In this document: positions 15,692 to 49,252 of the stretch, piece after piece | Position numbering within the stretch: the stretch's first letter is position 1 | Layout of the letters: the number at the start of each line of letters is the position of its first letter | NCBI GenBank assembly: GCA_964606745.1 | Contig: CAZSHJ010000003.1 | Location: 4,806-68,805 of the forward strand | From: an uncultured Thermoplasmatales archaeon | GTDB lineage: Archaea; Thermoplasmatota; E2; UBA202; DSCA01 | Reading direction: 5' to 3' | Length of the DNA stretch: 64,000 bases | Program-made: the position numbers and the translations under genes | The notes under the pieces: generated by a model | What the model was told of the DNA's origin: nothing | The model's database searches: none | What the model saw: only the letters and a program-made list of their open reading frames with translations

Positions 15692-15692
15692 A

Positions 15693-22507: not shown

Positions 22508-22606
22508 AATTTAGTTGTGACATTTTTTCACTACCACTGGCCATTAAGGTAGTCAAGTAGGATGGCAAGAAAACAGATAAGATGAATCATGTGGTTTTTG
22601 CATTAT

Positions 22607-23020: not shown

Positions 23021-23235
23021 TCTCTGGCCTCTCTTTTTGGATTTTTCTCTGGCTTTACTTTTACGCTTCCATACAATTTTTCCACAGGTTTTTCTACCAT
23101 ATCCTTGGATCTTATTACCAGTTTTTTATCATCTATCGAGATCAATATCTTTTCTCCCTCCCCTATTTTCAGTATCTTTCTCATTTTCTTGGGGATGACA
23201 ACTCTCCCGCCCACCGATACTTTCATTTCTTCCAT
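22987..23235 (-). CDS. vapB: AbrB/SpoVT-family antitoxin (VapB). The start is trimmed to the MEEMKVS methionine.
   Basis: A swapped-hairpin motif VSVGGRVVIPKKMRKILKIGEGEKILI lies just upstream of vapC and overlaps it. Confidence 0.6.
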   Translation of the reverse strand: MEEMKVSVGGRVVIPKKMRKILKIGEGEKILISIDDKKLVIRSKDMVEKPVEKLYGSVKVKPEKNPKREAREWMKKRIEEDL

Positions 23236-23351
23236 TTTCCCACAAAATACATGTAGTTTTGGTATATAATATTTGTCATTAAATATTATCCATAGAGATT
23301 TTGTCAAATAAAAGATGGTACAATTCTCTTGTCAACTAGTTATTAATAGCA

Positions 23352-32517: not shown

Positions 32518-32556
32518 ATAGAAAAAGCAAAAAATGTACAGAGGCATTACCTTTCA

Positions 32557-33432: not shown

Positions 33433-33485
33433 ATCTGATTGGTGCCGTTAAGAGAATTTATAAATAATTTGCATATGCAAAATGT

Positions 33486-34415
33486 ATGAAAGTTGCGATA
33501 ACGGGGGCGGCCGGATATTTTGGGCAAAGAATAACAGAAAGACTTGAAGGAAACGAGGCATGTGATAAAATCGTGGGCATTTCAAGAAGAAAATTTGAGC
33601 ATTCCTTTAAAAAACTGGATTATTACCGTATGGATGTCAGGAGCGAGGAGCTGAAGCAATTATTTGGCAAATACGAAATTGATGCGGTTGTGCACCTTGC
33701 ATTTGTGGTAAACCCGATTCATGATGCCAAGGAAATGAACAGCATAGATGTCGAAGGGGCAAGAAATGTGCTGGAGGCTGCAAAGCAGGCAGGGGTTAAA
33801 AAAGTCATCATGACGAGCAGTACGATGGTCTACGGGGCATGGCCGGACAACCCAGAATTTTTGACGGAGAGCAGTCCTCTGAGAAGTCATCCGAAATATT
33901 ATTACAGTAAGGACAAGGTAGAAGTTGAAAAAATGTGCGGGGTTTTCAAGAAGCAGAATCCCGACATGATTATTACGATATTGAGACCGTGCCTTGTCAT
34001 AGGGCCGAATGTGAACCATTTTTATTCCCGGTTGGTGAACTGGCCCGTCCTCCCGCTGGTCGGAGGAAACAATCCCGGCATACAGTTTGTCCATGAGAAC
34101 GATATCGGGAGGGCATATGAATTCTTCTTAACGAACGATATCGGCGGAACGTTCAACATCGTGGGTGACGGGACGATGAAATGGAAGGAAATTATTGGGG
34201 CGGCAGAAAAAAGGGCTGTTAAAATGCCAGGCTTTATTGTTTATCCCATACTCAGCCTTATGTGGAAACTTCATCTGACGGAGTCGCCCCCGGAAATTCT
34301 GGACTTTATAAGATACAGGTGGGTTGCATCGGGAGATAAAGCCAGGAAAGCCGGATTCACCCCGGATTACAATTCCAAGGAAGCGCTCTATACATTCCTG
34401 AAAAAGAAAAAGTAG
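33486..34415 (+). CDS. NAD-dependent epimerase/dehydratase (extended SDR family).
   Basis: Rossmann motif ITGAAGYFGQ plus a YxxxK-type core. Confidence 0.7.
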   Translation: MKVAITGAAGYFGQRITERLEGNEACDKIVGISRRKFEHSFKKLDYYRMDVRSEELKQLFGKYEIDAVVHLAFVVNPIHDAKEMNSIDVEGARNVLEAAKQAGVKKVIMTSSTMVYGAWPDNPEFLTESSPLRSHPKYYYSKDKVEVEKMCGVFKKQNPDMIITILRPCLVIGPNVNHFYSRLVNWPVLPLVGGNNPGIQFVHENDIGRAYEFFLTNDIGGTFNIVGDGTMKWKEIIGAAEKRAVKMPGFIVYPILSLMWKLHLTESPPEILDFIRYRWVASGDKARKAGFTPDYNSKEALYTFLKKKK

Positions 34416-34455
34416 AAAAACTTTATTACCTGATTCAATTTACGATTACCCCTCC

Positions 34456-34528
34456 GGGCCCGTGGGGTAGCTTGGCATCCTTCCAGCTTGGGGTGCTGGT
34501 AACCCGAGTTCAAATCTCGGCGGGCCCA
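34456..34528 (+). tRNA. tRNA-Pro(GGG).
   Basis: 73 nt. Acceptor stem GGGCCCG/CGGGCCC is followed by discriminator A. Anticodon stem CCAGC/GCTGG has loop TTGGGGT (anticodon GGG, G37). T-arm CCGAG-TTCAAAT-CTCGG. Confidence 0.8.
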
Positions 34529-34844
34529 TTTCTATTTTTATCTGGCATTTGTATTTGCCCATGCATTAGCGGCTGGCTGATTTAAAAGCGCGGAGGGAGG
34601 TGCTGAATCCCACGATAAATTTTATGGTTGGAGAAGGGATTCCGCCAGCTCTCCTCTTCGTAAGAAGCCCCGCCATTCATGGCGGGGAGTATGTCACTTG
34701 TTCATTCGTCATTTGTGTGAGGATGCGCCAGTCGCTATAAGGAGAAAGGGATTTACTGAGTGTGCCTAAAACGCACATTTTCCGCTCTTTTTTGTTACTT
34801 TCCGAAGTACTGATAAAATCGATAAATTTATAATAAGTTATTGT

Positions 34845-35774
34845 TTGATACCAAATAGGATGGGAAAGATGGATATCAGGGATTACAAATCTGGTATAGC
34901 TAATTCCTTAGATATAAAAACTATTGATAACATACTCATTAAGTTGATAGTATCAGAAAAAGAAGATGACGTTAACTGCGATTATTATATGATTGAATGT
35001 TATGAAGACGATATCCGGGAAGAAGATTTTTTACGAGCTTTAGTTAATATGATTCCCCATTATGCATTAAAAAGGGAAAAATTGGATTCTCTTTCGAAGG
35101 AAAATTTTATGAAACTCAGTAAAGAAGCTTTAAGAAGATTTGTTAGAACTGAAAACTCGGGGGAAATTGGAGAACTACTGATCTTTATTTTATTAGAGGC
35201 CGAAAGGAAGGCTTCTCAATTGATAAATAAAATGGTTTTGAAGACTTCTGGGGGTGTTCACGTTTATGGTCTTGACGGAATACATATTGGGGTTCTTGAC
35301 GATGATGTTGTTCTATACTATTGTGAATCCAAAACTTACAAAGATTTAAACAAGGGCATAAATGCTGCAATATCTGATTTGGATAAATTTCATCAGGACA
35401 ACATAAAAGAAGCCTTCGAATTAGAGCTTGTTAGCGATAATATAGATGAAAAAAAGTTTGAGGGAATCAAAGATAAACTTTTGGAATTATTAGATCCTTA
35501 TACAGAAATAGATAAGAGTCACTTTAAAAAGAAATATGCAATTTTTATTGGATTTGATTGGGCTAATATCAAATCATTTAATTTTAGGCCACCTATAAAA
35601 AATATCGAAGGGAAATTATGTAAATGCCTAAAAACTGATTCCAAAACAATTTGTAATAGATGCAAATCACTTGTTGATAAAAAAACAATCAATCGTTCTG
35701 TAGATATTTTCTTTTTGCCTTTTAAGGATTCTAAAAAAATAAATAGAGATTTCGTTAGGGAGATAAAATCATGA
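34845..35774 (+). CDS. PD-(D/E)xK nuclease-fold protein, a HamA-like (DUF1837-like) candidate.
   Basis: 309 aa. GELLIFILLE...GLDGIH...VLYYCESKTYKD fits the D...ExK pattern. Its stop overlaps the start of the helicase gene. Confidence 0.45.
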   Translation: MIPNRMGKMDIRDYKSGIANSLDIKTIDNILIKLIVSEKEDDVNCDYYMIECYEDDIREEDFLRALVNMIPHYALKREKLDSLSKENFMKLSKEALRRFVRTENSGEIGELLIFILLEAERKASQLINKMVLKTSGGVHVYGLDGIHIGVLDDDVVLYYCESKTYKDLNKGINAAISDLDKFHQDNIKEAFELELVSDNIDEKKFEGIKDKLLELLDPYTEIDKSHFKKKYAIFIGFDWANIKSFNFRPPIKNIEGKLCKCLKTDSKTICNRCKSLVDKKTINRSVDIFFLPFKDSKKINRDFVREIKS

Positions 35775-38329
35775 ACCAGGGTTGGTATCAAGAATTGAGC
35801 AACCGAATAACTTCAAATGATGAATTCATTGGGGATTATCTTGAATTATCAAGGCATTTTTTCAATAATAAGCAAAATAGTCTGTCATCAAAAACCCTTA
35901 AAAGACTTATGGAGAGTGCTTCAATTTTTGCTTGCTCCTCAGAGGAAACCCATAAAAGATTGGCTTTAAAGATTGCTGGCTCAGTTATGGAGGCTGATAT
36001 TGATAATGAAGCCTTAACTGCAGCGTCTGAGTTAATATTTTTAAGATTAGGCAATTTTCCATTAATAAGAATGGCTATAGAAAAATATGAAATGAAAGAT
36101 TTTTTTAGCATTTACAATGGAAATAGACCATTGACTACTCTCTCCCTAAACTATGAACTCACCAACAAGGTTATATCAAATCAAATAGTTATCGGGAAAA
36201 ATATTGAATTATTTACAGATTTTCAATCGAATGTAATAAAATTTTTAAGTGAAAAAGAAGATCTTTCTATTTCTGCTCCTACTTCAGCAGGAAAATCTCA
36301 TGCGTTGAAATCCTTTATTATTCAATCCCTTTTGACAAAAGAAAGATTTGTAGTGGTTTATTTGGTGCCAACCAGGGCACTCATAACTCAGGTACAGAAA
36401 GAAATCAGACAATCATTTAATGAATACTCCATAACTGATGCTGAAATTTTCACCTCTTCTTGGGAAGTGGTCGGGGAGGGAAAACATGAATTTTCTAAAG
36501 CAGTTATAATTTTAACGCAGGAGCGCCTACAAACTATAGAGGGAAGGACAGATAATTTTCAAGTGGATTTTCTTGTTGTTGATGAAGCTCAAAATATTGA
36601 AAAGGGTAGTCGAGGAATTACCTTAGAAGATAGTATTATGCAACTAATTGAATGGAACCCAGATTTTCAAATTGTATTTATATCTCCTTTTAGTAAAAAT
36701 CCAAAAAAATTTGGTGAGATATTCTCTTATGAAACTAAAGACATTATAACAAAACTTACGCCGGTAAGCCAAAATATTCTTTACGTCAATATTGATGGTA
36801 AAAAAATTACTATTAAACAAGTTTCACAGGAATTAGAAAAAATTCTAGATATGGCAGAATATGATGGTGAAAAATCCCTTCCTAAAGTTGGATATAAAAG
36901 AAAATCTTGGGTTGCGTTAAATCTTGTTGATGGCAACTCTACACTAGTTTATTGTGATGGGGCTCATGATTGTATAAGAACTGCACATTATCTTGTAGAT
37001 AATGCCAAAAATGCATCACTAAATAATAAAGAACTTGATGACGCTGGTAATTTTCTAGCTTCTTATATTCACCCACAATATTATCTTGTCGATTTCATCA
37101 AGAAAGGAGTTGGTTATCACTATGGAAACATGCCAGCTTCTGTACGGACTATTGTAGAATCACTGTTTAAAAAGAGATTAATTAATTCTGTGTGCTGCAC
37201 AAGTACATTATTAGAAGGCGTTAACTTTCCAGCAAAGAATATTATTTTGTACAGACCGAAAGTCGGTTTGAAAAACCCTATGGACAAGTTGGGATTTTTA
37301 AATTTAGCTGGACGAGCTGGGAGATTGATGGAAGATTTTGTGGGTAATATTTACTGTATTAACCCCCAAGAATGGAGGGATGGTTATACCCCAAAATCAA
37401 CACCAGAAGACCATGAAATTGGAAGCTCTATGGAAGATGTTGTAAAGAAGAAAAAAGATGAAATTATTAGTCATTTGAAAAAGTATGTAAAGAAAAGAGA
37501 TAATGAAGATGTCATGGTAGCAGTCACTAGATTTTTGGTAAATGAAATTAGAAAAGGAAACAAAGAGTTTGTGAAAAATCTGTTGCAACGTGATAAAGAA
37601 ATTCGAAAACAAGACCTAGATGACATTGTTAAAATGGTTAAACAAATTGTAAGTGAAATAGAATTAGATGGTAAAATTATTATTAAAAATAGGGCTATTG
37701 ACCCCAGATTACAGAATAGATTGTACTTGCACCTTCAAAAAATGGACGAACCTCCTTTGCCCCTTCATCCATCAAATTTTGAATTTTATGAGTCTTTGTT
37801 AAAAATATTAAGTGTAACTAACGAGATATTCCAGAGGAAAAAACCCGAAAATTCGTTAAAATTCACAGCTTGGCTTTCAAAGTCATGGTCAAACGAGGAA
37901 CCTTTAAATGAAATTATCAAACAAAGAATCTCGTATAAATCCAAAAACACTCAACTTACAAAGAAGAAAATCAATGATATAATAGAAGATGATATTATTA
38001 AACATATCAATCATAGAATAAGATACGAGGTAGTTAGGGATTTTAGTTGTTATATCTCTATACTTAAATATGTATTAGAAGAAAAAGATGGGGTGCCTGA
38101 ACATTTTGATGAGAAAGTACCATATTATTTGGAAATTGGGGCAAGTACACCCACCACGATCACTTTAATCAATAACGGCATTCCAAGATCGCTTGCATTA
38201 TTATTTTCTGAGCATCTGCCTGAAGATTTACAGGATTTTGAACTTTGCAAGAAATATATTGAGCAAAATGAAAGTTATATCAAACAAAAAATCTCACCCG
38301 CCTTATACAAAGAATTAGTATTGTTTTAA
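35771..38329 (+). CDS. Ski2/Hel308-like SF2 helicase, a HamB-like candidate.
   Basis: 852 aa with motif I ISAPTSAGKSHAL, motif II FLVVDEAQNI, GVGYHYGNMP (an HHAGL-like motif), CTSTLLEGVNFPAKNIILY and motif VI NLAGRAGRLMED. Confidence 0.55.
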   Translation: MNQGWYQELSNRITSNDEFIGDYLELSRHFFNNKQNSLSSKTLKRLMESASIFACSSEETHKRLALKIAGSVMEADIDNEALTAASELIFLRLGNFPLIRMAIEKYEMKDFFSIYNGNRPLTTLSLNYELTNKVISNQIVIGKNIELFTDFQSNVIKFLSEKEDLSISAPTSAGKSHALKSFIIQSLLTKERFVVVYLVPTRALITQVQKEIRQSFNEYSITDAEIFTSSWEVVGEGKHEFSKAVIILTQERLQTIEGRTDNFQVDFLVVDEAQNIEKGSRGITLEDSIMQLIEWNPDFQIVFISPFSKNPKKFGEIFSYETKDIITKLTPVSQNILYVNIDGKKITIKQVSQELEKILDMAEYDGEKSLPKVGYKRKSWVALNLVDGNSTLVYCDGAHDCIRTAHYLVDNAKNASLNNKELDDAGNFLASYIHPQYYLVDFIKKGVGYHYGNMPASVRTIVESLFKKRLINSVCCTSTLLEGVNFPAKNIILYRPKVGLKNPMDKLGFLNLAGRAGRLMEDFVGNIYCINPQEWRDGYTPKSTPEDHEIGSSMEDVVKKKKDEIISHLKKYVKKRDNEDVMVAVTRFLVNEIRKGNKEFVKNLLQRDKEIRKQDLDDIVKMVKQIVSEIELDGKIIIKNRAIDPRLQNRLYLHLQKMDEPPLPLHPSNFEFYESLLKILSVTNEIFQRKKPENSLKFTAWLSKSWSNEEPLNEIIKQRISYKSKNTQLTKKKINDIIEDDIIKHINHRIRYEVVRDFSCYISILKYVLEEKDGVPEHFDEKVPYYLEIGASTPTTITLINNGIPRSLALLFSEHLPEDLQDFELCKKYIEQNESYIKQKISPALYKELVLF

Positions 38330-38444
38330 ACAATCTGGATTTTCTGCAGTTATCGCATTGCGGATAACCAATTCCCACCTCTTCTGTTGGAGTATGTCCC
38401 AATATATCATCTCTCTTTATGAAGTTATAATACATCCTGTAATA

Positions 38445-38588
38445 CCGTCTCGCTCCCCCCTACTTGTGCGTTCCTGTGAAACCCCCCTACTATATGTATA
38501 TAGATATATAATAGGAATTAGTAAAACATTTCCGGCGAGTGTGTAACGATCGGGAGCGGACAGGCACCAATCAACAGATAGAAACACC
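38445..38588 (+). repeat. Intergenic repeat family R, copy 1 (3' portion).
   Basis: CTTGTGCGTTCCTGTGAAACCCCCC...TATATGTATATAGATATATAATAGGAATT...CAACAGATAGAAACACC followed by a T-run. It is about 85% identical to the copy at 44365. Confidence 0.7.
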
Positions 38589-38865
38589 AATATTTTTTTA
38601 CAATAAGGTCGCCTATTGTAGAAAAGGGGCGGAAATGTACCGGAAATTTTATTTTTGCTGAGCGGTAATGAGCAAATAGTGAGAGGATTGAATGCAGTAT
38701 TCATTATCTTTTATTCCCTCAAACTTTCGATTTTTTCCTCCACTGTAGCAGAATTTTATAATATTTTGCAACCCGTATTTACCACCCGTTTTGCTCGCCA
38801 CCCAAAACCCGAAGATTCGCCAGACCATAAACCAATACTTTTTTAAATAATGTAGTAATATAAAA

Positions 38866-39354
38866 TTGTTTAACATGTTATCCAACACGACAAAGGAGAA
38901 TGCAACGCAAACGGATATGGAAGAATTAGGGCAGTGTAAATTTTGCTCTATGATTAAAAACAAAAGAAATTATGATACTTTCATTACTGAATTAAATTAT
39001 GGCTATGTTTTTCTTAATCCAAATCAATCTTATAAAGGTCGAGTAATATACATACTTAAAGAGCACATCGAAGATTTTACCGAAGTTGATAACGATTTGT
39101 TTTTAAATTTCTGTGGAGAAATGAAGCAGATTGCAAAAATAACTAAACAAACTTTACAGAATCCCCTAATAAACGTTGCTATCCTCGGTAACAAAATTAA
39201 ACATCTGCATTGGCACATAATTCCAAGATATAAGTACGATAGTCGGTGGAATGGACCCCCTTGGCCAATTGATACAAAATTATTGAATCCTGACGAGTAT
39301 AAGGAATTGGCACTTTTGATAGGGGGGAAATTGAAGGTACTTAAAAATGACTGA
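38866..39354 (+). CDS. HIT-family nucleotide hydrolase/transferase.
   Basis: A histidine triad HLHWHIIPRY plus an N-terminal Cys pair (CKFCS). Confidence 0.7.
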   Translation: MFNMLSNTTKENATQTDMEELGQCKFCSMIKNKRNYDTFITELNYGYVFLNPNQSYKGRVIYILKEHIEDFTEVDNDLFLNFCGEMKQIAKITKQTLQNPLINVAILGNKIKHLHWHIIPRYKYDSRWNGPPWPIDTKLLNPDEYKELALLIGGKLKVLKND

Positions 39355-40354
39355 AATAATAAGATATAGAAAAACACCCGTTGGTTTGAATGATATCGGA
39401 AAATTTCCAGCATTGGAGGGAAACTGGAATTACTCTTACAAGAGTCTAAAAAATTTAAATCTTGCTTTCAACGAAAAATTAGATATAGACTCGGAAAAAA
39501 CATCAATTGTGCTAATGGGGTCTTTTGGTAGATATGAAGCATGCCCGTTTTCAGATATAGATTTAGTTGTTGTTTCAAATGAAAAAGAAACTGAGATAAA
39601 AAAAATAAGAAGTAACGCTTTAAAAATTGGTCGAGAATTGAGATTTTTAGCACCTAATCCTAAAGGCGTTTTTAGCCAAGTTAAACCAATCGATTCTTCA
39701 ATACGGGATATTGGAAGCCATAAAGTTGACGATAGTTTTCAGCTATCGCAAAGACTCTTATTGCTAATGGAATCAACACCTGTCTGGAATAAGACATTCT
39801 ATGATGAAATCATCGATAGATTGCTCGAGAGATACTCTTATTATGTAATCGAGGAACCGAAAAAAGAGCAGATATTCCTATTGAATGACACCATCAGATA
39901 TTTTCGCACAATTTGTGTCAATTACCAACACTCTTTTTGGAAAGAAAACGAAAAATGGGCTATTAGAAATATTAAATTAAATCATAGCAGAATTATTATG
40001 TTTGCAGGACTATTATTTCTCATTCTTAACTCCAGCAAAAATAGAACAGACAAAGTGAACTATATGAAATCCCACATGAAATTAACCCCACTAGAACGAA
40101 TCATCCATGTCTATAATGATAACAATGATACAAATGTTGAAAGAGTTGTTGGTTCATACAATGTTTTTCTTGGAAAAATGAGTGATAAGAATATTCGAAA
40201 TAGTCTAAATATTGATTACGTAAATCGGTATTTAAATCCAATATATGCTGAATTAAAAGTCAACGCATGTTTATTGACGGCTGAGCTAACACGCTTTATA
40301 TTTTCTATGATGGGTCACTGGACGAATAGCATATTTGAATATCTTATTTTTTAA
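39347..40354 (+). CDS. Pol-beta-superfamily nucleotidyltransferase (GlnE/DUF294-like or CD-NTase-like) with a C-terminal helical domain.
   Basis: LMGSFGRYEACPFSDIDLVVV matches the GS...DxD NTase motif. The gene overlaps the HIT gene by 8 bp. Confidence 0.5.
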   Translation: MTEIIRYRKTPVGLNDIGKFPALEGNWNYSYKSLKNLNLAFNEKLDIDSEKTSIVLMGSFGRYEACPFSDIDLVVVSNEKETEIKKIRSNALKIGRELRFLAPNPKGVFSQVKPIDSSIRDIGSHKVDDSFQLSQRLLLLMESTPVWNKTFYDEIIDRLLERYSYYVIEEPKKEQIFLLNDTIRYFRTICVNYQHSFWKENEKWAIRNIKLNHSRIIMFAGLLFLILNSSKNRTDKVNYMKSHMKLTPLERIIHVYNDNNDTNVERVVGSYNVFLGKMSDKNIRNSLNIDYVNRYLNPIYAELKVNACLLTAELTRFIFSMMGHWTNSIFEYLIF

Positions 40355-40419
40355 TAACAATATTAAGTCTAAAATCTTAATCTCTAAATGCCCATTTTAT
40401 TTTCACAAATATAGCCAAG

Positions 40420-40640
40420 TCTAAGTATGTAACCGCTAGCTTGAATAAGTTTAAGACATTTTGTGGAGGACAGATGAGATTCACTGAATGCTATCCCATA
40501 TTGGACAGTTAGTAAGTTTCCAAATATTTAGTACATGAAAACATAGAAACAACAGCTCGATACCTACATTTGATAGATGGAGACTTGCGAAAATTAATCA
40601 ATAATCCAAATGTAAAAGACCCTCTCACGCAAAGAAACGG
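40420..40640 (+). pseudogene. Frameshifted 3' remnant of a tyrosine recombinase/integrase.
   Basis: In one frame, ...GGQMRFTECYPILDS* (RHT-box-like). In a second frame, YLVHENIETTARYLHLIDGDLRKLINN, which matches the LGH...TT..Y.H catalytic Tyr region. Confidence 0.45.
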
Positions 40641-40850
40641 CAAAAATCGATATGCCATTGTAAAACCCTATCCGTTGAATGAAATGGGCCCACAGGGGCT
40701 GGGAGGGTACAGCGAAACATTTTTCCTGTTCTTGTATTTCCGATAATGATTGCGGTCATTTTACCCTTCACTTTTAGGGTAAAACAGAAGGATGTCATTT
40801 CGACCTAATTTAAGCCGTGCTGGCCTTATCGTATCTACATCTGGTTCTGT

Positions 40851-41037
40851 CAATAAATTCGGTTCTGGTGCAATTCCGGGTCTTTTCTCTCCACAAACGT
40901 TACGCCGTCCCACTTGTGCGTTCCTGTGAAACCCCCCCCACCATATACACATATATATGTTATAGGAATCTTAATTTCATTGCCGTTTGCCGGCACGCCA
41001 ATGCAGGGGACGTGAGGGTGTTCAACAGATGTAAAAC
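40851..41037 (+). repeat. Intergenic repeat family R, copy 2 (full length).
   Basis: ATAAATTCGGTTCTGGTGCA...CACAAACGTTACGCCGTCCCACTTGTGCGTTCCTGTGAAACCCCCC...TATA-rich...TTCAACAGATGTAAAACCC followed by TTGATTTTTT. Confidence 0.7.
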
Positions 41038-41285
41038 CCTTGATTTTTTAAGAATAGCCTTCTCATCTTCTCCAACAAAGAAAATCTTTTGTACTCGTCC
41101 TTTGACCTGTGCAAATGTCCAGGAAATACTCCGAGTTTGTTATATTCACTGAAAGCACCTTCGCTTTCTGGGTGCTCTTTCTCCATCTCATTTTTTATTT
41201 TAGCAAACAGGGTATGGAGCTGAATTAATTCTTCTTTTTGCATCCTGTCACGGTGGGATAAATAAATTTGGTTTAGAATGTGCAA
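41022..41285 (-). CDS. Hypothetical small protein.
   Basis: 87-aa ORF that overlaps the 3' end of repeat R2. Confidence 0.3.
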   Translation of the reverse strand: MHILNQIYLSHRDRMQKEELIQLHTLFAKIKNEMEKEHPESEGAFSEYNKLGVFPGHLHRSKDEYKRFSLLEKMRRLFLKNQGFYIC

Positions 41286-41884
41286 TGTCCAAACTCTGGA
41301 GGATTTCCAATCTTTCCGTACAACACAGTAATCCTTCCTAACACTTCATCTATTAAAGATTGATCATTATTCATCCACTTCAAATCATTTTTTAATTCGT
41401 CGTGAATACTTTCACAATCTACCGCAACAGCATCTTCTTTAGCAATGACACAAAAATAAAACTGCACATCACCATTTATCTTGTACTCATTTCCACCCAT
41501 ATCGCCAGTTACGGGATTGAACAGGAGTTTCTCTGAAAAATTATTTCTTGCTTTAAAATAGTCCACGAATTTATAAAAGTCACCCTGATAATAAGGGTAA
41601 TTAGAATGTTTTAGCTCTACAAATGCTGTTATCTCCCCGCCCTTACATATTAGGTAGTCTGGAGAATAGTGCCCCAAGTTTAACAAGGTAGGCTTTGCAA
41701 ATAATTCATACCCATCTTTCTCGATGTTTTTTATTAGGTAATGGCCCAAACGAAAGTCCAGGTCGCCTTCATAGGCTATTTTTCCATCCTCATAGTATCG
41801 TTTAATATCTTCATTCCATATCTTCAAAATCACTGTTTTAATCATAGAATTTTCATCATGCATATAGTTTAATCCTGTTTCCAA
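41273..41884 (-). CDS. Hypothetical protein with a possible PD-(D/E)xK nuclease motif.
   Basis: 203 aa. HYSPDYLICKGGEITAFVELKHS fits a PD...ExK pattern. Confidence 0.35.
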   Translation of the reverse strand: METGLNYMHDENSMIKTVILKIWNEDIKRYYEDGKIAYEGDLDFRLGHYLIKNIEKDGYELFAKPTLLNLGHYSPDYLICKGGEITAFVELKHSNYPYYQGDFYKFVDYFKARNNFSEKLLFNPVTGDMGGNEYKINGDVQFYFCVIAKEDAVAVDCESIHDELKNDLKWMNNDQSLIDEVLGRITVLYGKIGNPPEFGHCTF

Positions 41885-41908
41885 TATTTAAGCATTACTG
41901 GTTCACTC

Positions 41909-42025
41909 GGGTTCTGTTTCAAATACAGGTCTTTTCCCTGCACAAACGTTACGCCATCATACTTGCGGGTACTGTGAAACCCCCCCGCTATATGTATATA
42001 GATATATTATGGGAATTAGATTACT
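41909..42025 (+). repeat. Intergenic repeat family R, copy 3 (5' and TATA portion, diverged).
   Basis: GGGTTCTGTTTCAAATACAGGTCTTTTCCCTGCACAAACGTTACGCC...CTGTGAAACCCCCCCGCTATATGTATATAGATATATTATGGGAATT. Confidence 0.65.
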
Positions 42026-42170
42026 CATCAGAAATGTTTTTGTTTTTCATTTAGAAGCTTAGCTATTTCATCTGATTTGGTCTGACCTGTTTCTTTTAGT
42101 TTCTTATATACTTGTGAATCCAACTGATTAAGTAAAAGTTTAAGTAGAATCTTTACATCTATCTCCATAG

Positions 42171-42428
42171 GTGATGAAAATGATAGAGGCTTTTATCTTA
42201 TTGACGCTAGAGGCGGATAAAGTCAAGGAAGTACTTAAAAATATAAAGAAAAAAGTACCTGAGGTCAAAGAAGCAAAAGGGATAACAGGACCGTATGATG
42301 CGATACTTCGGGTAGATGCAAAGGATCTACAGGATCTTACAAGAGAGATTGTCTCCACAATCTACAGAATAAATGGGGTCATTGACACAACGACAGCAAT
42401 AGTCATAGAATCAAGTGAAGACGAATAA
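42171..42428 (+). CDS. Stand-alone Lrp/AsnC-type ligand-binding (RAM) domain protein.
   Basis: 85 aa. MIEAFILLTLEADKVKEVLKNIKK.PEVKEA.GITGPYDAILRVDAKDLQDLTREIV....GV.DT.T.IVIE matches the AsnC C-terminal domain. Confidence 0.6.
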   Translation: MMKMIEAFILLTLEADKVKEVLKNIKKKVPEVKEAKGITGPYDAILRVDAKDLQDLTREIVSTIYRINGVIDTTTAIVIESSEDE

Positions 42429-43641
42429 TCATATTATTGGAATTTTATCAATGTCAAACAATCCTCCTAAGAACATAAATTCATCATCCTGCAGGGAAGA
42501 TTATGCTAGAAAAAGAAAGATATTAAGAAGAAGAAGATTAAGAAGAGAAAGAATACTACTCCATCAAATTAGAAGAAATACAAAGATCGCTGCTTTTAGA
42601 ATATCAACAATTAAAGTTGAAAAACTTAGAATAACTCCGGTAGAAGGTCTGGCGATACTCGTGGGTACACTGGTAGGGGCGGGAGTTCTTGGTTTACCTT
42701 ATGCTGCATCAAAGGTAGGTCTTATACCAGCAATGGGGATTTTATTTGGAATTATGCTGCTCATGCTTTTCACATCATTCATTGTCCTAAAATTATCAGC
42801 TGAAATGGGTGGAGCCCAAATGAGTACAATTGCACAAAGCTCTCTAGGTAAAACCGGTGGCTGGATAATGTACCTCAGCATCATGATAACGGGTTTCGGA
42901 GCTTTTCTCGCCTATATAGCAGGAATTGGAAGTATTTTCACAAATTTATTTGGAGTTAACGAGACCATTGGGGCCATCTTTTTCTGGATTCTTGCTTCAT
43001 CTGTAATATACTTGGGTTTGGAGGCCAGTGGAAAAACAGAGTTGATAATGAGCTTGTTGCTGCTAGCTATTTTCATAGGTATAACCGGTATGCTTCTCCC
43101 ACATGCAAGATTAGAGAATGCGCTCTATGCAGATTATACCGGTATATTTTCTATGATGGGTGTTGTCATATTTGCTTTTGGATTCCATACGGTTATACCA
43201 GATGTTTATAGAGGAATTGGAAGCTACAAGAAAACGAAGAAAATTATTGTATTGGCATTCCTTATCCCCACTGTTGTCTACGCGGTTTTTATGGTTGTAT
43301 TCCTAATGACATTTGGCAAAAATACTCCTCAGGTAGCAACCCAGGGGCTTGAAACCATTTATAATGGAATGGGAAACGTTGTTGGTAATGCGTTACCCTT
43401 AATTGCTATAACAACAAGTTATATCGGATTGGGTCTTGCACAGCAAAGTAACAGTAAAGAGTTCCTCAGATTGAAAAAACCAGCTGCATGGGCACTGACC
43501 GTTGTTCCACCAATAATTATTTATCTTGCAGGTGTAAAAAACTTTGCCGATATTCTATCATTTTCAGGTAACACTGGTGACCTGATGGCTTTCATAATTC
43601 TTCCTATACTGATATGGATTATAAGACGTGTTTCCCGATGA
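42415..43641 (+). CDS. Amino-acid permease (APC/aromatic amino acid transporter-like) with a basic N-terminal extension.
   Basis: 408 aa with about 11 TM helices. It overlaps the RAM-domain gene by 14 bp. Confidence 0.55.
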   Translation: MKTNNHIIGILSMSNNPPKNINSSSCREDYARKRKILRRRRLRRERILLHQIRRNTKIAAFRISTIKVEKLRITPVEGLAILVGTLVGAGVLGLPYAASKVGLIPAMGILFGIMLLMLFTSFIVLKLSAEMGGAQMSTIAQSSLGKTGGWIMYLSIMITGFGAFLAYIAGIGSIFTNLFGVNETIGAIFFWILASSVIYLGLEASGKTELIMSLLLLAIFIGITGMLLPHARLENALYADYTGIFSMMGVVIFAFGFHTVIPDVYRGIGSYKKTKKIIVLAFLIPTVVYAVFMVVFLMTFGKNTPQVATQGLETIYNGMGNVVGNALPLIAITTSYIGLGLAQQSNSKEFLRLKKPAAWALTVVPPIIIYLAGVKNFADILSFSGNTGDLMAFIILPILIWIIRRVSR

Positions 43642-43887
43642 TTAGCATACATCTTCAAAAATGATAGATAACTCTGCTTTGTGGAGGGGGGTGACAGATT
43701 CCACGATAAATTTTGCGGTTGGTGCACCGGTTCTGGTGCATATACGACTGTTACTATTTAGTTGGTGCATTCGACTGTCACACTCCTTCCCATTAAATCC
43801 AACATTTTATTCCTTCCAAGATTTAAGTCAATCCCTGCTTCCTCTGCCGGAGCGAACCGTAACGGGTTCTGGTGCAAAAGTGGCATT

Positions 43888-44310
43888 TTATAGCTTTCCT
43901 GCGAACTCGTCGAGTTCCCTTTCCCAGTTTCCTGTCAGACCGTTGCCGGTATTGGCATCTTTTCCGACCTTAAAATCCACGCCGGCCACCTTAACCATAT
44001 TCTTCTTCGAGAGAAGTTTCTCCATCTTTTGAAGCCAGTTCCTTTCCATTGCATGTGTGTTGATTATAGCGTATCTTTTTCCTTCCATGTCCTCCAGCTT
44101 CTTCATAAAACTCCTCATGTTCTTCTGGATGTTGAATGCCTCAGTCGGGGCAGAGAATACATACAGGTTTGCTTCGGGCATTGCGACAGGGTTTGCCTCA
44201 TCGGTTTTGAAAATCTGGACTTCCCCTTTCTCCCTCAGCTTTTCTGCGAGGTAATCAACAATCTTCTTTCCGTTGCCATATCTTGACCAATAAACGGTGA
44301 CATATTTCAT
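43888..44310 (-). CDS. Flavodoxin-like fold protein.
   Basis: 140 aa. MKYVTVYWSRYGNGKKIVDYLAEKL resembles a flavodoxin N-terminal phosphate-binding loop. Confidence 0.4.
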   Translation of the reverse strand: MKYVTVYWSRYGNGKKIVDYLAEKLREKGEVQIFKTDEANPVAMPEANLYVFSAPTEAFNIQKNMRSFMKKLEDMEGKRYAIINTHAMERNWLQKMEKLLSKKNMVKVAGVDFKVGKDANTGNGLTGNWERELDEFAGKL

Positions 44311-44364
44311 AAACTCACCAGTATAAGATACGAATCATATATAAGAATGTAACAGTAAACATAT

Positions 44365-44543
44365 GGTTCTGGTGCAAATACAGGTCTTTTCCCTTCACAA
44401 ACGTTACGCCGTCCTACTTGTGCGTTCCTGTGAAACCCCCCTGTTATATGTATATAGATATATAATAGGAATTGATAAAACGTTTCCGGCGTGTGTGTGG
44501 CGATTGGGAGCTGACGGACACCATTCAACAGATGTAAAACCCC
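44365..44543 (+). repeat. Intergenic repeat family R, copy 4 (full length).
   Basis: GGTTCTGGTGCAAATACAGG...CTTGTGCGTTCCTGTGAAACCCCCCTGTTATATGTATATAGATATATAATAGGAATT...TTCAACAGATGTAAAACCCC followed by ATTATTTTT. Confidence 0.7.
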
Positions 44544-44544
44544 A

Positions 44545-44718
44545 TTATTTTTCGGCAATCATATATGGAATCCCATCCTTTATTTTGTATGTGGCTCTGC
44601 ATTTCGTGCATGTGAACATTCCCTCCAGGATATCATCGCCTTCCATTTCTTTCACCTCCAGCTCAAGTTCGCCACGGCATGCGGGACAGCACATCATCTG
44701 GATAAATTCTTTCTTCAT
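44545..44718 (-). CDS. Trm112-like zinc-ribbon small protein (57 aa). It is missing from the ORF track, which uses a 60-aa minimum.
   Basis: Translation of the reverse strand gives MKKEFIQMMCCPACRGELELEVKEMEGDDILEGMFTCTKCRATYKIKDGIPYMIAEK, carrying the CPxC...CxxC Trm112/UPF0434 signature. Confidence 0.6.
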   Translation of the reverse strand: MKKEFIQMMCCPACRGELELEVKEMEGDDILEGMFTCTKCRATYKIKDGIPYMIAEK

Positions 44719-44761
44719 CATTATGACATAAACAAATTAAATAAAAATGTGATTACCATAC

Positions 44762-45544
44762 ATGCGTCTTGCACTGAAAATTGCATATGACGGAACATAC
44801 TACCATGGTTACGCCCGCCAGCCCGGCATTGTCACAATCGAGGGAGAAATTGCGAGAAAATTGGAGGAGATGGGTGCAATTAAAAGTGGAAAAGATTCAT
44901 ACCTTCAGGTTGCATCAAGGACGGACGGGGGTGTCAGTGCCGCGGGAAACGTAATTGCTTTTGACACCGATATGGATAGCAACTCAATTGTGAATGCTCT
45001 TGTCCATGCCCTGAAGGAGATATGGGTTGTGGGTTTTGCAGAGGTGCCGTGTGATTTCAATCCGCGTTACGCCATGGGTAAAAAATACAGATACTACCTT
45101 TACAATGACGGGCTTGATGTTGATGCCATCAAAAATGCGGTGGGATTGTTTGTGGGAGAACACGACTTCACAAACTTTGCCCGGCTGGACGGGAGAAATC
45201 CCGTAAGGAGAATCCGGAAGGCAAGGGTTTTGCCCGGCAGGATAATGAAGATGGATTTCGAGGGCAATAGCTTTTTATGGAATCAGGTAAGACGTATGGC
45301 GGCTGCGGCGGAAAAAGCCGGAAGGGGAGAGATTTCTGCGGAAGATATCGGGAATGCTCTGAGGGTAAAATGTAGAAAAAGTTTTGGTACTGCACCGCCG
45401 GAAAATCTGCTGCTAGTAAGTGTAGCATACCAGGAAAGTCTGGATTTTCATCCGGTCAGAAAATCGGAAAAGTTTGTGTCCGGCACATTAAAAAAGTTGG
45501 AATTGAGGACGACAATGGCGAGCGACATTATGACATTCTTGTAA
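44762..45544 (+). CDS. truA: tRNA pseudouridine(38-40) synthase TruA.
   Basis: LKIAYDGTYYHGYARQPG, with the catalytic Asp in the RTDGGVSAAGN block. Confidence 0.8.
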   Translation: MRLALKIAYDGTYYHGYARQPGIVTIEGEIARKLEEMGAIKSGKDSYLQVASRTDGGVSAAGNVIAFDTDMDSNSIVNALVHALKEIWVVGFAEVPCDFNPRYAMGKKYRYYLYNDGLDVDAIKNAVGLFVGEHDFTNFARLDGRNPVRRIRKARVLPGRIMKMDFEGNSFLWNQVRRMAAAAEKAGRGEISAEDIGNALRVKCRKSFGTAPPENLLLVSVAYQESLDFHPVRKSEKFVSGTLKKLELRTTMASDIMTFL

Positions 45545-45606
45545 ACGCAATTGAACGAAATAAATATATACACATTTCCCATTCTTGTAAGTAAGGTGAT
45601 TGTATA

Positions 45607-46308
45607 ATGAAAGCGAATGCAGTTAAATTTGGTTTGGTTTTGGGGGTGGCAGCACTTTTGGTTGCGCCGATGTTATTTGCACCGGCATCTTCGAGTGATT
45701 CGCCGAAGGTCATACCTGTAAACTGCTCTGTTGTAAAGCAAAAAGGGGCTTCTCTTGACATGCAGCAAACAATAACAGTCAGGGAGGCGAAGGAATTAAC
45801 CCGGAAATGCAATGATGCGGCGCAGTCGTTCGAGGTACTCTGTTCGAATTCATCCTCTGATGGGGAGAAGGACAGGGCAAGGGAGATTATAGAAAATGCA
45901 GTGGATATGATGATAGACCTTAATATACTGACTGCAGAATATGCTACGTATGTGGCGAATATGCTGTTCTGGCCATGCGGACCGTCACACGGCTTTGACA
46001 TATTCGCACCCGTAATCAGTGTGGGGCAGGGTTGCTCGTGGATTCCCCTTTATCCTGGAGAAGCGTTCCTGGGCATTATGCTGAGGCCTATATTTGTGTT
46101 GTATCCCCTCGTGGGTTATACGGCTTCTCTCGGTGTTAACCTGTTGCCGCCGCGAATAGAGTACTGGGATCTTGTCGGACCGCAGGTCTTTATGGCATGG
46201 GGATTTGCCGGGATATACCTCAACTTCGGTAAGATCGGGCTTGGAGTGCCTAATACAAATTTCATGCTAGGTTATTCTATTGCCACGGCGGGAATAAGCC
46301 TTCTTTAG
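45607..46308 (+). CDS. Secreted/membrane hypothetical protein.
   Basis: Signal peptide and C-terminal hydrophobic segments. Confidence 0.4.
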   Translation: MKANAVKFGLVLGVAALLVAPMLFAPASSSDSPKVIPVNCSVVKQKGASLDMQQTITVREAKELTRKCNDAAQSFEVLCSNSSSDGEKDRAREIIENAVDMMIDLNILTAEYATYVANMLFWPCGPSHGFDIFAPVISVGQGCSWIPLYPGEAFLGIMLRPIFVLYPLVGYTASLGVNLLPPRIEYWDLVGPQVFMAWGFAGIYLNFGKIGLGVPNTNFMLGYSIATAGISLL

Positions 46309-46371
46309 AGCTTTTTCCTTTTTTATATTTTTTTAACTTTTTTAAAATTTTTTTGATGCCAAATTTTATTA

Positions 46372-47310
46372 ATGGTATTTGTATTTAGGTGGTTAATGGG
46401 TGGACAATTCAAGGCATGGATACAACTGGTTAGACCGTTTACTCTCGTAGCTCCGTTTATAGCGATATTTTTCGGAGTCATTATCCAGCTTGCAGTATAC
46501 GGGAACCTGGCAGCATTCTGGCCAAATCTGCCGACGATACTTTTTGCATCTCTTGCACTATCTGCAGCTCAGGCGGTGGGGCAGATTCTAAATCAGGTGG
46601 AGGATGTTGAAATAGATATATTGAACCATAAGGATTACCGCCCCATACCGAGCGGAAAAGTAAATGTGGGGCAGGCCGAGATGGCCAGCTGGTCGCTCGC
46701 CATATTTTCCGTACTTGTCGGCTTTGCGGTGAATATTTATTATGGGATGTTCATGACGACTTTTCTTTTGTTCGGCATACTGTATAATCTCGAGCCTTTC
46801 AGGGTGAAAAAACGCCTGTGGATGAATACGGCATCACTTGCACTGTCCCGTGGTTTGCTTCCTTTACCGGCGGCGTGGAGCATATTCGGTAACCCCGCCG
46901 ATGCGGCCCCGTGGCTTCTCGGTAGCATAATGGCTGTCTGGGTGCTTGCATGGCAGAATACTAAGGACATTGACGATGTTGAGGGCGACAGGGATTGCAG
47001 GATAATGACGCCCGTAGTTTATCATAAAGGGAAGACATTGACTCGCATAATGGGCATTTTATCGTTAATTACATTTACCCTGCTCACTTTTTATATTGTT
47101 TCCGGATGGCTTCCGTCCAGTATGGCAATTTTATTCATCCTGGCGTTGCCTACATTCTGGATGTTTTACAAGATGGCCAGAAATGACATATCTATTACTT
47201 CACTGGAAAATAATGAATTATGGGCATCCTTTTACCTTACACTGGCAGGTTTTTATATAGTTGCCGCTGCAGCATACCTCGTGGGTCCTTACCTGACTCT
47301 TTTTTCGTAG
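46372..47310 (+). CDS. UbiA-family prenyltransferase, possibly digeranylgeranylglyceryl phosphate synthase.
   Basis: Nine TM helices, an Asp-rich motif NQVEDVEID and a second motif KDIDDVEGD. Confidence 0.65.
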   Translation: MVFVFRWLMGGQFKAWIQLVRPFTLVAPFIAIFFGVIIQLAVYGNLAAFWPNLPTILFASLALSAAQAVGQILNQVEDVEIDILNHKDYRPIPSGKVNVGQAEMASWSLAIFSVLVGFAVNIYYGMFMTTFLLFGILYNLEPFRVKKRLWMNTASLALSRGLLPLPAAWSIFGNPADAAPWLLGSIMAVWVLAWQNTKDIDDVEGDRDCRIMTPVVYHKGKTLTRIMGILSLITFTLLTFYIVSGWLPSSMAILFILALPTFWMFYKMARNDISITSLENNELWASFYLTLAGFYIVAAAAYLVGPYLTLFS

Positions 47311-48917
47311 TCAAGATTTTTGCTCATGTAGACCCCGTCTTTTTTGTACCCCAAGCGTCTGTAATATTCTCTGGTACCTACACCACTTAAAACCAGGATT
47401 TTTTCTTTTCCTGCATCTCTTGCGGCATTCTCCGCCTCGCCCAGCAATTGCCTCCCGTATCCCCTATGTTGCCATTCTTGATATGCTTTTTTTCCTATTG
47501 GAACGAGGGGTCCGCTTACTCTCAACTCCCTTACCAATGCATCATTCGCACCGATTTCATGGCGGTGGGGCATGAAAGGGAATCGTAGTCTGCAGTAGCC
47601 CACTATCACATCATTTTTCCCATCTTCAATTGATATAAATATTTCTTTTCCGGCGCTCGCTTTGTAATCTCTCTTCACAATCTCCACTTTCCCTATACAC
47701 ACATTGTCTTTATACTGCCGGTGGCCCACTTCTCTGCACCGTATGCACCTGCATTTTCTCCCTTCGTTTTCCATGCGTTTGAGAACAAGCTGCCGCAAAT
47801 TGCTTTTTTTGATGCCCGCATCAATCAAATTTGCCGGAATATCTCTTTCCACACGCTGTATACGAACCCACTCGGGTACATATCTCTTCATTTCGGCGAT
47901 AAGATCAATGGCATCATTCGTATCAAGCGGTTTGTATTTCCCTCTTTTCCATTTCTCGTATAGTAATGATGGATTTACCACTAGTGTGGGATAGATTTTC
48001 AGCATGTCGGGTTTGAATTTCTCGTCTTCGAACATCCTTTTAAAGGACTCGACGTCATCATCCCGTCCGCTTCCCGGCAACCCCGGCATTATGTGGTAAC
48101 ATACTTTCAATCCGGCATCCTTGGATATCCTCGTAGCATCCGTGGTATCCGAAACAGTATGTCCCCTCCTTATTTCGTATAATACCCGGTCGTTCAGAAT
48201 CTGGGCACCCAGTTCGATTCTCGTTGCACCCATACCCAAAATCCTGTCCACGTGATGCAATCTGCACCAGTCAGGCCTTGTTTCTACAGTCATGCCTGTG
48301 CACCTATACTTTGCCTTCTCGTTCAAAACCTCTGCATCTTCCAGTGTTGTAGTCCTTTTTTCATTCATGGCATCGTAGCATCTCTTCACAAACCATTCCT
48401 GGTAGTCAAAATCCCTGGCTGTAAAAGTTCCTCCCATTATTATAAGTTCGATTTTATCTGTCGGATGCCCTACAATTTCAAGCTGCTTTATCCTGCCGGC
48501 TGTTTGTTCAAACGGGTCGTAGTTGTACATAATTGCCCGCTGGGCGGCAGGCTCCTTGCCCGTATAGCTCTGGGCGGAGAATGGCGGCCCTCCGGGGCAT
48601 GGGATACATCTCCCGTGGGGGCATTCGTATGGCGAGGTCATTACGGCGACAATTGCCACGCCCGAGAGTGTCCTTACGGGCTTTTTTTGTAATATTGCAT
48701 CTATCTCTTGTTTTTGCCCACCGGGGATGTGTGAATGTATATCTGCATTTGTGGGCATTCTGGCAAGACCGTATTTCTTGCAAAATTCTTTTTTAAATTT
48801 CTCCAGAGACTTCCTTCCGGTTATCTTTCCCTCATTTATGGCTTCCAGTATTTTCCCCGCCAGTTTTTTTATCTTTTCCTCCTCACAGTCATTCATTTGA
48901 AAATTGTATTTTTTCAT
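47289..48917 (-). CDS. elp3: Elp3 homolog: a radical-SAM plus GNAT tRNA uridine-34 acetyltransferase.
   Basis: YECPHGRCIPCPGG radical-SAM cluster region and a C-terminal GNAT block QHRGYGRQLLGEAE. Confidence 0.85.
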   Translation of the reverse strand: MKKYNFQMNDCEEEKIKKLAGKILEAINEGKITGRKSLEKFKKEFCKKYGLARMPTNADIHSHIPGGQKQEIDAILQKKPVRTLSGVAIVAVMTSPYECPHGRCIPCPGGPPFSAQSYTGKEPAAQRAIMYNYDPFEQTAGRIKQLEIVGHPTDKIELIIMGGTFTARDFDYQEWFVKRCYDAMNEKRTTTLEDAEVLNEKAKYRCTGMTVETRPDWCRLHHVDRILGMGATRIELGAQILNDRVLYEIRRGHTVSDTTDATRISKDAGLKVCYHIMPGLPGSGRDDDVESFKRMFEDEKFKPDMLKIYPTLVVNPSLLYEKWKRGKYKPLDTNDAIDLIAEMKRYVPEWVRIQRVERDIPANLIDAGIKKSNLRQLVLKRMENEGRKCRCIRCREVGHRQYKDNVCIGKVEIVKRDYKASAGKEIFISIEDGKNDVIVGYCRLRFPFMPHRHEIGANDALVRELRVSGPLVPIGKKAYQEWQHRGYGRQLLGEAENAARDAGKEKILVLSGVGTREYYRRLGYKKDGVYMSKNLDYEKRVR

Positions 48918-49214
48918 TTACGTATATGTCATGCCGCTTTCGCTGTCTATCCTTTCGTCATCAGAATAATATTTTTCGATGATATCATTTTTATCGACGA
49001 ATGTTTCCTTCAGCCGTGTTATACGTTTTTTGAATTCACTATCATGTATATCCATCTCCTTGTAAATCCTGCTTATGAGTTTTACCAAGTCTGAAAATAT
49101 CGGAACCAGGGCTTCCTGTGTTTCATAAATTTCCTCGAGCATGGCCTCATTATATCTGATTTCATCTTCCAGTTCCTTGATTTTACGGGAAATATCCTTC
49201 TTATCGGTCTTCAT
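48918..49214 (-). CDS. Hypothetical coiled-coil protein.
   Basis: 98-aa ORF immediately upstream of elp3. Confidence 0.35.
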   Translation of the reverse strand: MKTDKKDISRKIKELEDEIRYNEAMLEEIYETQEALVPIFSDLVKLISRIYKEMDIHDSEFKKRITRLKETFVDKNDIIEKYYSDDERIDSESGMTYT

Positions 49215-49252
49215 TATTTCATCTCCGGGGATTATGAAAATGGGAAAGATTA

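Follow-up and report, generated by a model that had tools for sequence, protein, structure and literature searches.

A repeated non-coding sequence at the module borders of a tRNA-Pro defence island in an uncultured Thermoplasmatales archaeon

What a non-coding sequence that recurs between the genes of a defence island stands for is the question raised by a 64,000-nucleotide (64-kb) stretch of DNA from an uncultured Thermoplasmatales archaeon (contig CAZSHJ010000003.1), which was analysed at its full length and is called the window below. Within 38.4-44.6 kb of the window lie four copies of a non-coding repeat of ~188 nucleotides (nt), here named R, all on the + strand. An earlier note on this DNA had left three options for the family, namely a small non-coding RNA (ncRNA) gene family, a mobile promoter or miniature inverted-repeat transposable element (MITE), and reiterated scars of attachment (att) sites. 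The analysis presented here indicates that R most likely marks the joints of mobile gene modules that were integrated successively, which would make it an ordinary scar and no new RNA gene.

Copies and layout of R

Copies of R were located in the window with a repeat finder and pattern searches and were aligned with MAFFT. Where at least five copies had been claimed, four were found, together with two short pieces of the 5' end; neither the repeat finder nor the pattern searches gave a copy in the remaining 54 kb.

38459-38598, + strand: R copy c38, 5'-truncated with the first ~50 nt gone; TA-rich module, 3' module and core-like tail ACCAATATTTTTTT kept
40861-41048, + strand: R copy c40, full length, with the tail CCCTTGATTTTTT
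41910-42025, + strand: R copy c41, 3'-truncated right after the TA-rich module, ending with GGGAATTAG
44365-44544, + strand: R copy c44, full length, forming the final 180 nt of the island on its right side and adjoining the stop codon of Trm112
43729-43745, + strand: isolated R 5'-end fragment GGTTCTGGTGCATATAC, with 16/17 matches to the first 17 nt of R
43865-43877, + strand: isolated R 5'-end fragment GGTTCTGGTGCAA, a second short piece of 13 nt

The proposed three-part layout is borne out by the alignment: a 5' module comes first, then the TA-rich module, and last a 3' module bearing a T-run. Identities between copies are 83-100% in the 5' module, 69-93% in the TA-rich module and 81-93% at the 3' end. 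A 26-mer (ACTTGTGCGTTCCTGTGAAACCCCCC) occurs three times and a 19-mer (TTCAACAGATGTAAAACCC) twice without a mismatch, with ~0 such occurrences expected in shuffles; GGTTCTGGTGCA, GTTCCTGTGAAAC and TTCAACAGATGTAAAAC are further blocks typical of R. The 5'-terminal motif GGTTCTGGTGCA is also found alone at 43729 and 43865. The most diverged copy is c41, from which the whole 3' module is gone.

The two full-length copies, c40 and c44, share a 5' module that is 92% identical and an identical 3' 19-mer. The 51 nt that lie in c40 between the TA-rich module and this 19-mer match c44 at 16/51 positions (shuffle mean 13.4, P=0.24), which makes c40 a mosaic; this centre, unrelated to c38 and c44, nevertheless has exactly the same length. 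Ends of R that are 92-100% identical around a centre at chance level point to distinct element lineages with common functional end blocks and not to duplication in place. The homology of c44 with c38 and c40 extends 8 nt past the end of the island to position 44552, which gives a full copy of 188 nt (44365-44552).

Insertion at the tRNA-Pro gene

The copies of R belong to an island that begins directly behind a tRNA gene and ends at a gene of the chromosomal core.

34456-34528, + strand: tRNA-Pro(GGG), detected by ARAGORN (Rfam, 53 bits), the sole tRNA of the window and the integration target
34529-44544 (±4), unstranded: genomic (defence) island of ~10 kb, missing in relatives
44545-44721, - strand: Trm112, assigned by Pfam and synteny with relatives, the first core gene right of the island

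Relatives of the window were found by a search with TruA, whose gene lies just right of c44 (61-68% identity). In four of their contigs (L060, L061, L062 and L064) the order is epimerase, tRNA-Pro, Trm112 (minus strand) and TruA with nothing between, and in the first three of these the last base of tRNA-Pro is 0-5 nt from the Trm112 stop codon. The flanks of L060 align by blastn to 32514-34528 and 44549-51679 of the window. Because tRNA-Pro abuts Trm112 in the relatives and the L060 flanks align in this way, window positions 34529-44544 represent an insertion of ~10 kb, and the L060 alignment therefore also identifies c44 as the right-terminal 180 nt of the island; insertion and boundaries are thereby shown. 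The GC content is 32-36% at ~35-43 kb, which is most of the island, versus ~45% in the flanks. The four contigs from the same population (L059 and L067-L069) are 100% identical to the window.

Windows of 51 nt centred on both island junctions were compared by local alignment, which yielded an imperfect direct repeat.

34525-34562, + strand: attL-side imperfect direct repeat CCCATTTCTATTTTTATCTGGCATTTGTATTTGCCCAT
44541-44577, + strand: attR-side imperfect direct repeat CCCATTATTTTTCGGCAATCATATATGGAATCCCAT, from 44545 on the 3' end of the Trm112 gene

The left repeat starts with the 3'-terminal CCCA of tRNA-Pro, and the alignment score of the pair is 22 versus a null of 12.5 (standard deviation 2.4; P=0.0025). 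The junction sequences read CCCATTTCTATTTTTATCTGGCAT... on the left and CCCATTATTTTTCGGCAAT... on the right, and exact identity is confined to 5-6 nt. The tails of c40 (CCCTTGATTTTTTAAGAAT; P=0.0005) and c38 (ACCAATATTTTTTTACAAT; P=0.003) align with the c44 junction through the T-run, the P values of the alignments among these tails being 0.0005-0.0075. Three copies (c38, c40 and c44) hence carry a core-like tail with the common pattern CCC/CCA-TT/AT-ATTTTTT-..AAT, and c44 with its core forms the right junction of the island; c41 has no such tail because it is truncated. The weight of the core argument rests on the position of the core and not on its rarity. The T-run tail noted earlier is present in c38, c40 and c44, but in c44 it consists of Trm112 codons: the T-run TTATTTTTC (44545-44553) corresponds to the stop, Lys and Glu codons and is conserved in relatives that have no R, as is the C-terminus MIAEK* of Trm112.

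The position and arrangement of the copies bear on the option of repeated insertion, either of a non-autonomous, MITE-like transposable element or of a mobile promoter. R is short, non-coding and multi-copy and occupies AT-rich intergenic positions, as such an element would. However, it has no terminal inverted repeats, since the 5' motif GGTTCTGGTGCA has a complement at the 3' end only in part, with gaps and in c44 alone, and the flanks of c40 and c44 show no target-site duplication. All copies point the same way within a single stretch of 6 kb, the remaining 54 kb of the window being free of dispersed copies; the position of c44 coincides exactly with the boundary of the island, and the six-frame peptide search of 5.8 billion proteins described below revealed no R-derived open reading frames (ORFs) elsewhere. 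We consider this explanation very unlikely.

Two observations on the homologous site in relatives were made alongside. In L064, whose TruA is 61% identical, the tRNA promoter is kept and only the last 24 nt of tRNA-Pro (CGAGTTCAAATCTCGGCGGGCCCA) are present (4530-4590); ARAGORN detects no tRNA at this site, which could be the deletion scar of an element that used the 3' part of the tRNA as its att site. Two contigs from related populations (L063, 1-40; L065, 1-10) stop 8-36 nt beyond the 3' end of Trm112, at the tRNA-Pro/Trm112 junction, and these ends may hint at variable content at the junction there too.

Gene modules and the integrase remnant

Between tRNA-Pro and Trm112 the island carries the following foreign genes, mostly of defence, to which a gene for a 203-amino-acid (203-aa) protein of unknown function is added.

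34845-38329, + strand: cassette 1, Hachiman HamA and HamB (Pfam; PADLOC, HamA 8e-50 and HamB 3e-186)
38866-40354, + strand: cassette 2, HIT protein and nucleotidyltransferase (NTase), PDC-M70A-like (Pfam, PADLOC)
40516-40701, + strand: tyrosine-recombinase pseudogene, last ~57 codons only, with box II ...LVHENIETTARYLHL... (six-frame read)
41022-41285, - strand: UPF0058 gene, 3' end replaced by the c40 tail
42028-44310, unstranded: cassettes 4a and 4b, a 46-aa ORF, an AsnC-type domain protein and an amino-acid permease, then a flavodoxin

Copies of R stand at the borders between the Hachiman module, the module with NTase, HIT protein and integrase remnant, and the module with UPF0058 and the 203-aa protein. 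At one of these borders a gene is visibly cut. The last 8 codons and the stop codon of the UPF0058 gene are encoded by the tail of c40, and the Pfam match covers only profile positions 1-52 of 87; the c40 tail therefore marks a breakpoint.

The pseudogene reads toward c40, which is 160 nt away, and directly upstream of it, from ~40445, two in-frame stops occur in a sequence with weaker likeness to box II. Its only database relative is P0125 (PF00589), with an E-value of 1e-7 in phmmer and 58% identity over 62 aa in tblastn (E=3e-16). Among the fetched contigs, L070 is the sole one with the same integrase family, and its nucleotide sequence is 78.5% identical to the remnant; the L070 integrase is itself 5'-truncated (156 aa) and follows an ApeA (HEPN) defence gene directly. 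A pattern common to L070:957-2509 and window 39347-40701 is that a defence gene stands in place of the integrase N-terminus. Apart from the integrase remnant, tblastn of all island proteins gave no pseudogene remnants in the island spacers, and no relatives of the NTase were found in viral contigs.

Since no intact integrase was found among the ORFs scanned in the 64 kb, the island appears immobile. The lack of such a gene also suits an alternative in which no specific recombinase acts on R. R would then be a mere homology patch without a function of its own: circular or linear DNA with an R-like intergenic region would enter the resident R by Campbell-type homologous recombination, and each event would duplicate R. 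Direct repeats of 140-188 nt with 5' modules that are 83-100% identical are sufficient for homologous recombination, and L070 possesses the same integrase family without R. This explanation, however, does not account for the first insertion, which is exact at the 3' terminus of the tRNA and has a junction direct repeat, nor for the sharp conservation of end blocks that enclose a centre of the same length but unrelated sequence, nor for the isolated 5'-end motifs of 13-17 nt. It is regarded as unlikely.

Proposed serial integration at tRNA-Pro

The reading towards which we lean, on balance, is that R, a genuine and lineage-specific repeat family, is an attP-type arm with a short core, reiterated by serial integration at the 3' end of tRNA-Pro(GGG). 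Of the options in the earlier note it corresponds to reiterated att-site scars, which are favoured by the location of the island at tRNA-Pro, the junction repeat, the terminal position of c44 and the integrase pseudogene upstream of c40. That note had also considered that the copies might simply match an att core derived from tRNA-Pro. Such a tRNA-derived att copy was ruled out: the local alignment of R with tRNA-Pro is at chance level, with only the terminal CCCA in common, and the window contains no second copy of the 3' 24-mer of tRNA-Pro. R would therefore be an element-borne arm adjoining a short core, without a copy of the tRNA.

From these observations we infer an order of events, a binding-site role for the conserved blocks and the kind of recombinase involved, as follows. 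R may be the conserved non-coding end that characterises a family of gene cassettes or small integrative elements stacked at the 3' end of tRNA-Pro(GGG), and the core may be a short T-rich sequence resembling the junction of the tRNA end with the Trm112 end. The R and core of an incoming element would recombine with the att site already present at the tRNA, and each event would therefore leave an internal att copy. The resulting order would be tRNA, attL, the Hachiman module and R with core (c38); then the NTase/HIT module with the integrase remnant and R with core (c40), followed by the UPF0058/203-aa module and a trimmed R (c41); and finally the permease and flavodoxin modules, R with core (c44) and Trm112. 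The integrases would then have been lost through deletions, which would also have shortened c38 and c41. The near-identical blocks GGTTCTGGTGCA, CACAAACGTTACGCC, ACTTGTGCGTTCCTGTGAAACCCCCC and TTCAACAGATGTAAAACCC are putative arm-type and core-type binding sites of the integrase, and the unrelated spacer of equal length in c40 (51 nt) might reflect a constraint on their spacing.

A separate pair of repeats, named D8 (41-51 nt, at 34592 and 43683), overlaps the areas in which two further 5' fragments of R had been placed. Its score is 43 versus a null of 18 (standard deviation 2.2).

34592-34632, + strand: D8 copy a, 63 nt inside the left end of the island and outside R proper
43683-43723, + strand: D8 copy b, 6 nt before an R 5'-end fragment

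The fragment proposed at 34606-34632 has no significant similarity to R and belongs to D8, whereas the one at 43696-43745 is retained for 43729-43745 (16/17), with the second fragment at 43865-43877 added to it. A cluster of same-strand motifs occupies 43716-43877, with two occurrences each of GTTGGTGCA (43718, 43761) and GGTTCTGGTGCA (43729, 43865); it is placed between the convergent permease and flavodoxin genes, adjoins D8 copy b, and resembles either a junction that has decayed or a set of binding sites.

Several points weigh against serial integration. Classical tRNA-targeting elements repeat a segment of the tRNA and R does not, as the chance-level alignment with tRNA-Pro indicates, and att repeats are typically much shorter than R. 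The core, short and rich in T, is as a bare 12-mer no rarer than chance in an AT-rich window. Neither the order of D8 copy b followed by an R fragment (43683-43745) nor the isolated GGTTCTGGTGCA motifs follow neatly from this reading, which does not account for the cluster at 43683-43877 in its details. With all four population contigs identical, polymorphism by excision or insertion of the island is not observable, and neither an excisionase nor a circular junction was seen. The lack of an intact integrase in the window belongs here as well, as does L070, where the 1.1 kb that follow the integrase gene contain no R-like DNA.

A bolder view of the same data, to which we give only a slim chance, is that R is the recombination site of a still-active, integron-like cassette platform of archaea, with a long conserved non-hairpin att site and a variable spacer of fixed length. 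A tyrosine recombinase of the P0125 family would recognise R, through which cassettes for defence and metabolism would be taken up, accumulated and rearranged beside tRNA-Pro; the 3' module might additionally be transcribed as an element-specific small RNA.

RNA, promoter and coding potential of R

The layout of R also resembles that of a small RNA gene, with the TA-rich module as a promoter, a transcript of ~70-80 nt with a variable body, the 3' handle UUCAACAGAUGUAAAACCC and an oligo-U terminator; such an RNA would be unstructured and would serve as cargo or as a regulator of the mobile element. In line with this, an AT-rich box is followed by ~80 nt and a run of T5-T7 in c38, c40 and c44, and a 19-nt 3' block is perfectly conserved beside a centre that was replaced at equal length.

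The searches gave no positive evidence of such an RNA. Searching Rfam 15 with R returned nothing at the gathering threshold or at E<=10, and the fold z-scores of both modules on both strands were +0.2 to +2.1, with one of -0.5, no better than shuffles. For the 3' module, RNAalifold suggested a helix containing 5 compensatory pairs (3/500 in the column-shuffle control of the tool). This control misleads here, the structure having come from the very three sequences under test: when only the divergent centre of c40 was shuffled and RNAalifold was re-run, 45% of the controls had at least 5 compensatory pairs (energy P 0.11). The apparent signal is thus an artefact that comes from fitting a structure to a single sequence without relation to the others, the c40 centre, and the covariation suggested as a check on the aligned copies does not rise above this calibrated null. 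A structured ncRNA was accordingly rejected, with no signal from Rfam, folds, RNAalifold on both modules and strands, pair counting or the calibrated null. The variable, guide-like segments were compared with the window by blastn-short, and their matches of <=12 nt are at chance level, so that no antisense target was found there.

The promoter evidence is divided. A host promoter motif, RAAAnTTTAAATAA, was learned from 33 upstream regions of the window and lies at -30 to -45 from the start codons, which implies very short or absent leaders. The TA-rich module scores 2.9-5.2 bits on either strand versus a training median of 9.7 bits for real promoters, and its description as a promoter with B recognition element and TATA box thus fits poorly. 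The best + strand matches, of 6.9-7.9 bits, lie just past the TA-rich module in c38 and c44 only, which would suit a small RNA. The T-run of c44, in turn, is Trm112 coding sequence that is present in relatives without R as well, and c41 lacks the entire 3' module. With no Rfam family, no fold signal and a weak promoter match, a small RNA gene is, like the homology patch, an unlikely explanation of R, and the ncRNA gene family proposed earlier gained no positive support.

ORFs that span R had been dismissed as products of DNA conservation, and this judgement is supported. In c38 and c40 the frames are interrupted, Pfam gave no match, and a six-frame peptide query of R against 5.8 billion proteins gave nothing at E<=10. 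A protein-coding fragment was thus ruled out, on broken frames, no Pfam match and no protein relatives.

Replication origin or cassette site

R contains a TTCC...GAA core (GTTCCTGTGAAAC) that resembles mini-origin recognition boxes (mini-ORBs) such as TTCCAGTGGAACT (PMC1904270) and adjoins an AT-rich stretch, from which a replication origin with an ORB-like box and an AT-rich unwinding element, brought in by plasmid-derived modules, could be imagined. Archaeal origins have several ORBs, usually inverted, that flank an AT-rich region next to orc1/cdc6 (PMC4010727). Each copy of R, by contrast, has one TTCC-N3-GAA box, all boxes are direct and not inverted, the spacing between TTCC and GAA is off by 1 nt, and no orc1/cdc6 gene was found among the window ORFs scanned in the 64 kb. 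The related possibility of an attC-like cassette site draws on the array of direct repeats between gene cassettes, which is similar to an integron array. Against it, the single-strand DNA fold z-scores of 0.22 and 1.08 (c44, both strands) and -0.11 (c40) are like those of shuffles; no IntI-type gene is present, the only recombinase being the decayed generic PF00589 remnant inside the array; R''/R' sites are not in the attC arrangement; and the cassettes are multi-gene and bidirectional. Both versions are largely refuted by these tests, and we regard them as highly improbable.

Searches beyond the window and other features

Outside the window, a pattern scan for R in genome contigs gave 0 hits, a weak negative in a collection that does not contain the source genome. 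The scan of metagenome contigs gave one chance hit, in a high-GC bacterial gene, and is likewise weak as a negative, the identical contig L059 not having been returned. Two scans of viral contigs (0 hits and 1 chance hit) and blastn of R against phage and plasmid collections, which returned nothing, are weak negatives too.

Several features of the window stand apart from R. A 24-nt stretch inside hamA (35453-35476) has an inverted match of 96% in the spacer after c38 (38704-38727), with no extension at the protein level. An ORF of 372 aa at 31399-32517, flanked by the genes for the DEAD helicase and EamA, contains four internal tandem repeats of ~156 nt and has no Pfam match; L060 and L061 have no gene at this position. 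Two low-GC patches (33-35%) at 21071-23307 and 15000-17000, neither of which contains R, may be additional acquired DNA: one encodes a 478-aa protein without a Pfam match and a PIN/MazE-type toxin-antitoxin pair, and the other a stand-alone CDC48 N-domain protein. A 125-nt direct repeat with 77% identity and 252-nt spacing at 49362-49738, inside the gene of a 1802-aa PKD-repeat protein, reflects the domain repeats of that protein. The window also encodes Topo VI and C25 peptidases. Together with the giant PKD protein and the TruA neighbours, these suggest that the DNA probably stems from a member of the Thermoplasmatota resembling the MBG-D archaea of sediments.

Comparison with known systems

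If serial integration at tRNA-Pro is the correct reading, the island would be a base-pair-resolved example of the assembly of a defence island in an uncultured archaeon, by successive integration at one tRNA and then loss of the integrases. R would serve as a sequence tag for the borders of modules and for finding the free elements, and it would aid the annotation of islands in archaeal metagenome-assembled genomes, in which att sites are rarely defined; current concepts would be left unchanged. A cassette platform or a small RNA, if true, would be of wider interest, as a second, non-integron mode of organising exchangeable defence cassettes.

The attP site of lambda-type phages combines arm sites with a core, measures ~240 bp and adjoins the 3' end of int. 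R has a similar size, is located just downstream of an integrase remnant and consists of conserved blocks with fixed-length spacers. The likeness is architectural only, and the sites in R are putative.

Integrons have reportedly been described in archaea in 2022. Like an attC array, the copies of R are repeats in the same orientation between accessory and defence cassettes near a tyrosine recombinase gene. Unlike attC sites, R has neither the single-strand hairpin nor the R''-L''/L'-R' organisation, IntI is missing, and the cassettes have their own promoters and run in both orientations.

In streptococci, integrative and conjugative elements, integrative and mobilizable elements and cis-mobilizable elements accrete into composites in which integrase-less modules are separated by internal att sites (PMC5704250). 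The present island likewise appears to be a composite built by site-specific accretion, with integrase-less modules between internal att sites, as in the cis-mobilizable case. The streptococcal systems differ in being bacterial, linked to conjugation and equipped with experimentally defined att sites, and the island holds no conjugation or mobilization genes.

Pipolins are defence islands on tRNA-integrating elements with att-like direct repeats (PMC11551731). The present island has no piPolB or other conserved core module, has an archaeal host, and its repeats are internal as well as terminal. What it shares with pipolins is the site of integration at a tRNA 3' end, direct repeats of att-like type and a defence cargo that varies, represented here by Hachiman and NTase/HIT.

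Arrays of tyrosine-recombinase elements that re-use one site are known from archaea, with att sites as short as 8 bp (Krupovic et al. 2019, PMC6563490). The island described here differs from these arrays in that the reiterated unit is ~188 nt long and not derived from the tRNA, only its last ~12 nt being target-like, and in that its very small modules (1-4 kb) no longer possess integrases of their own. It agrees with them in the insertion at a tRNA 3' end, verified here against empty sites, and in attL/attR direct repeats, tandem modules with internal att copies, a decayed integrase and short cores.

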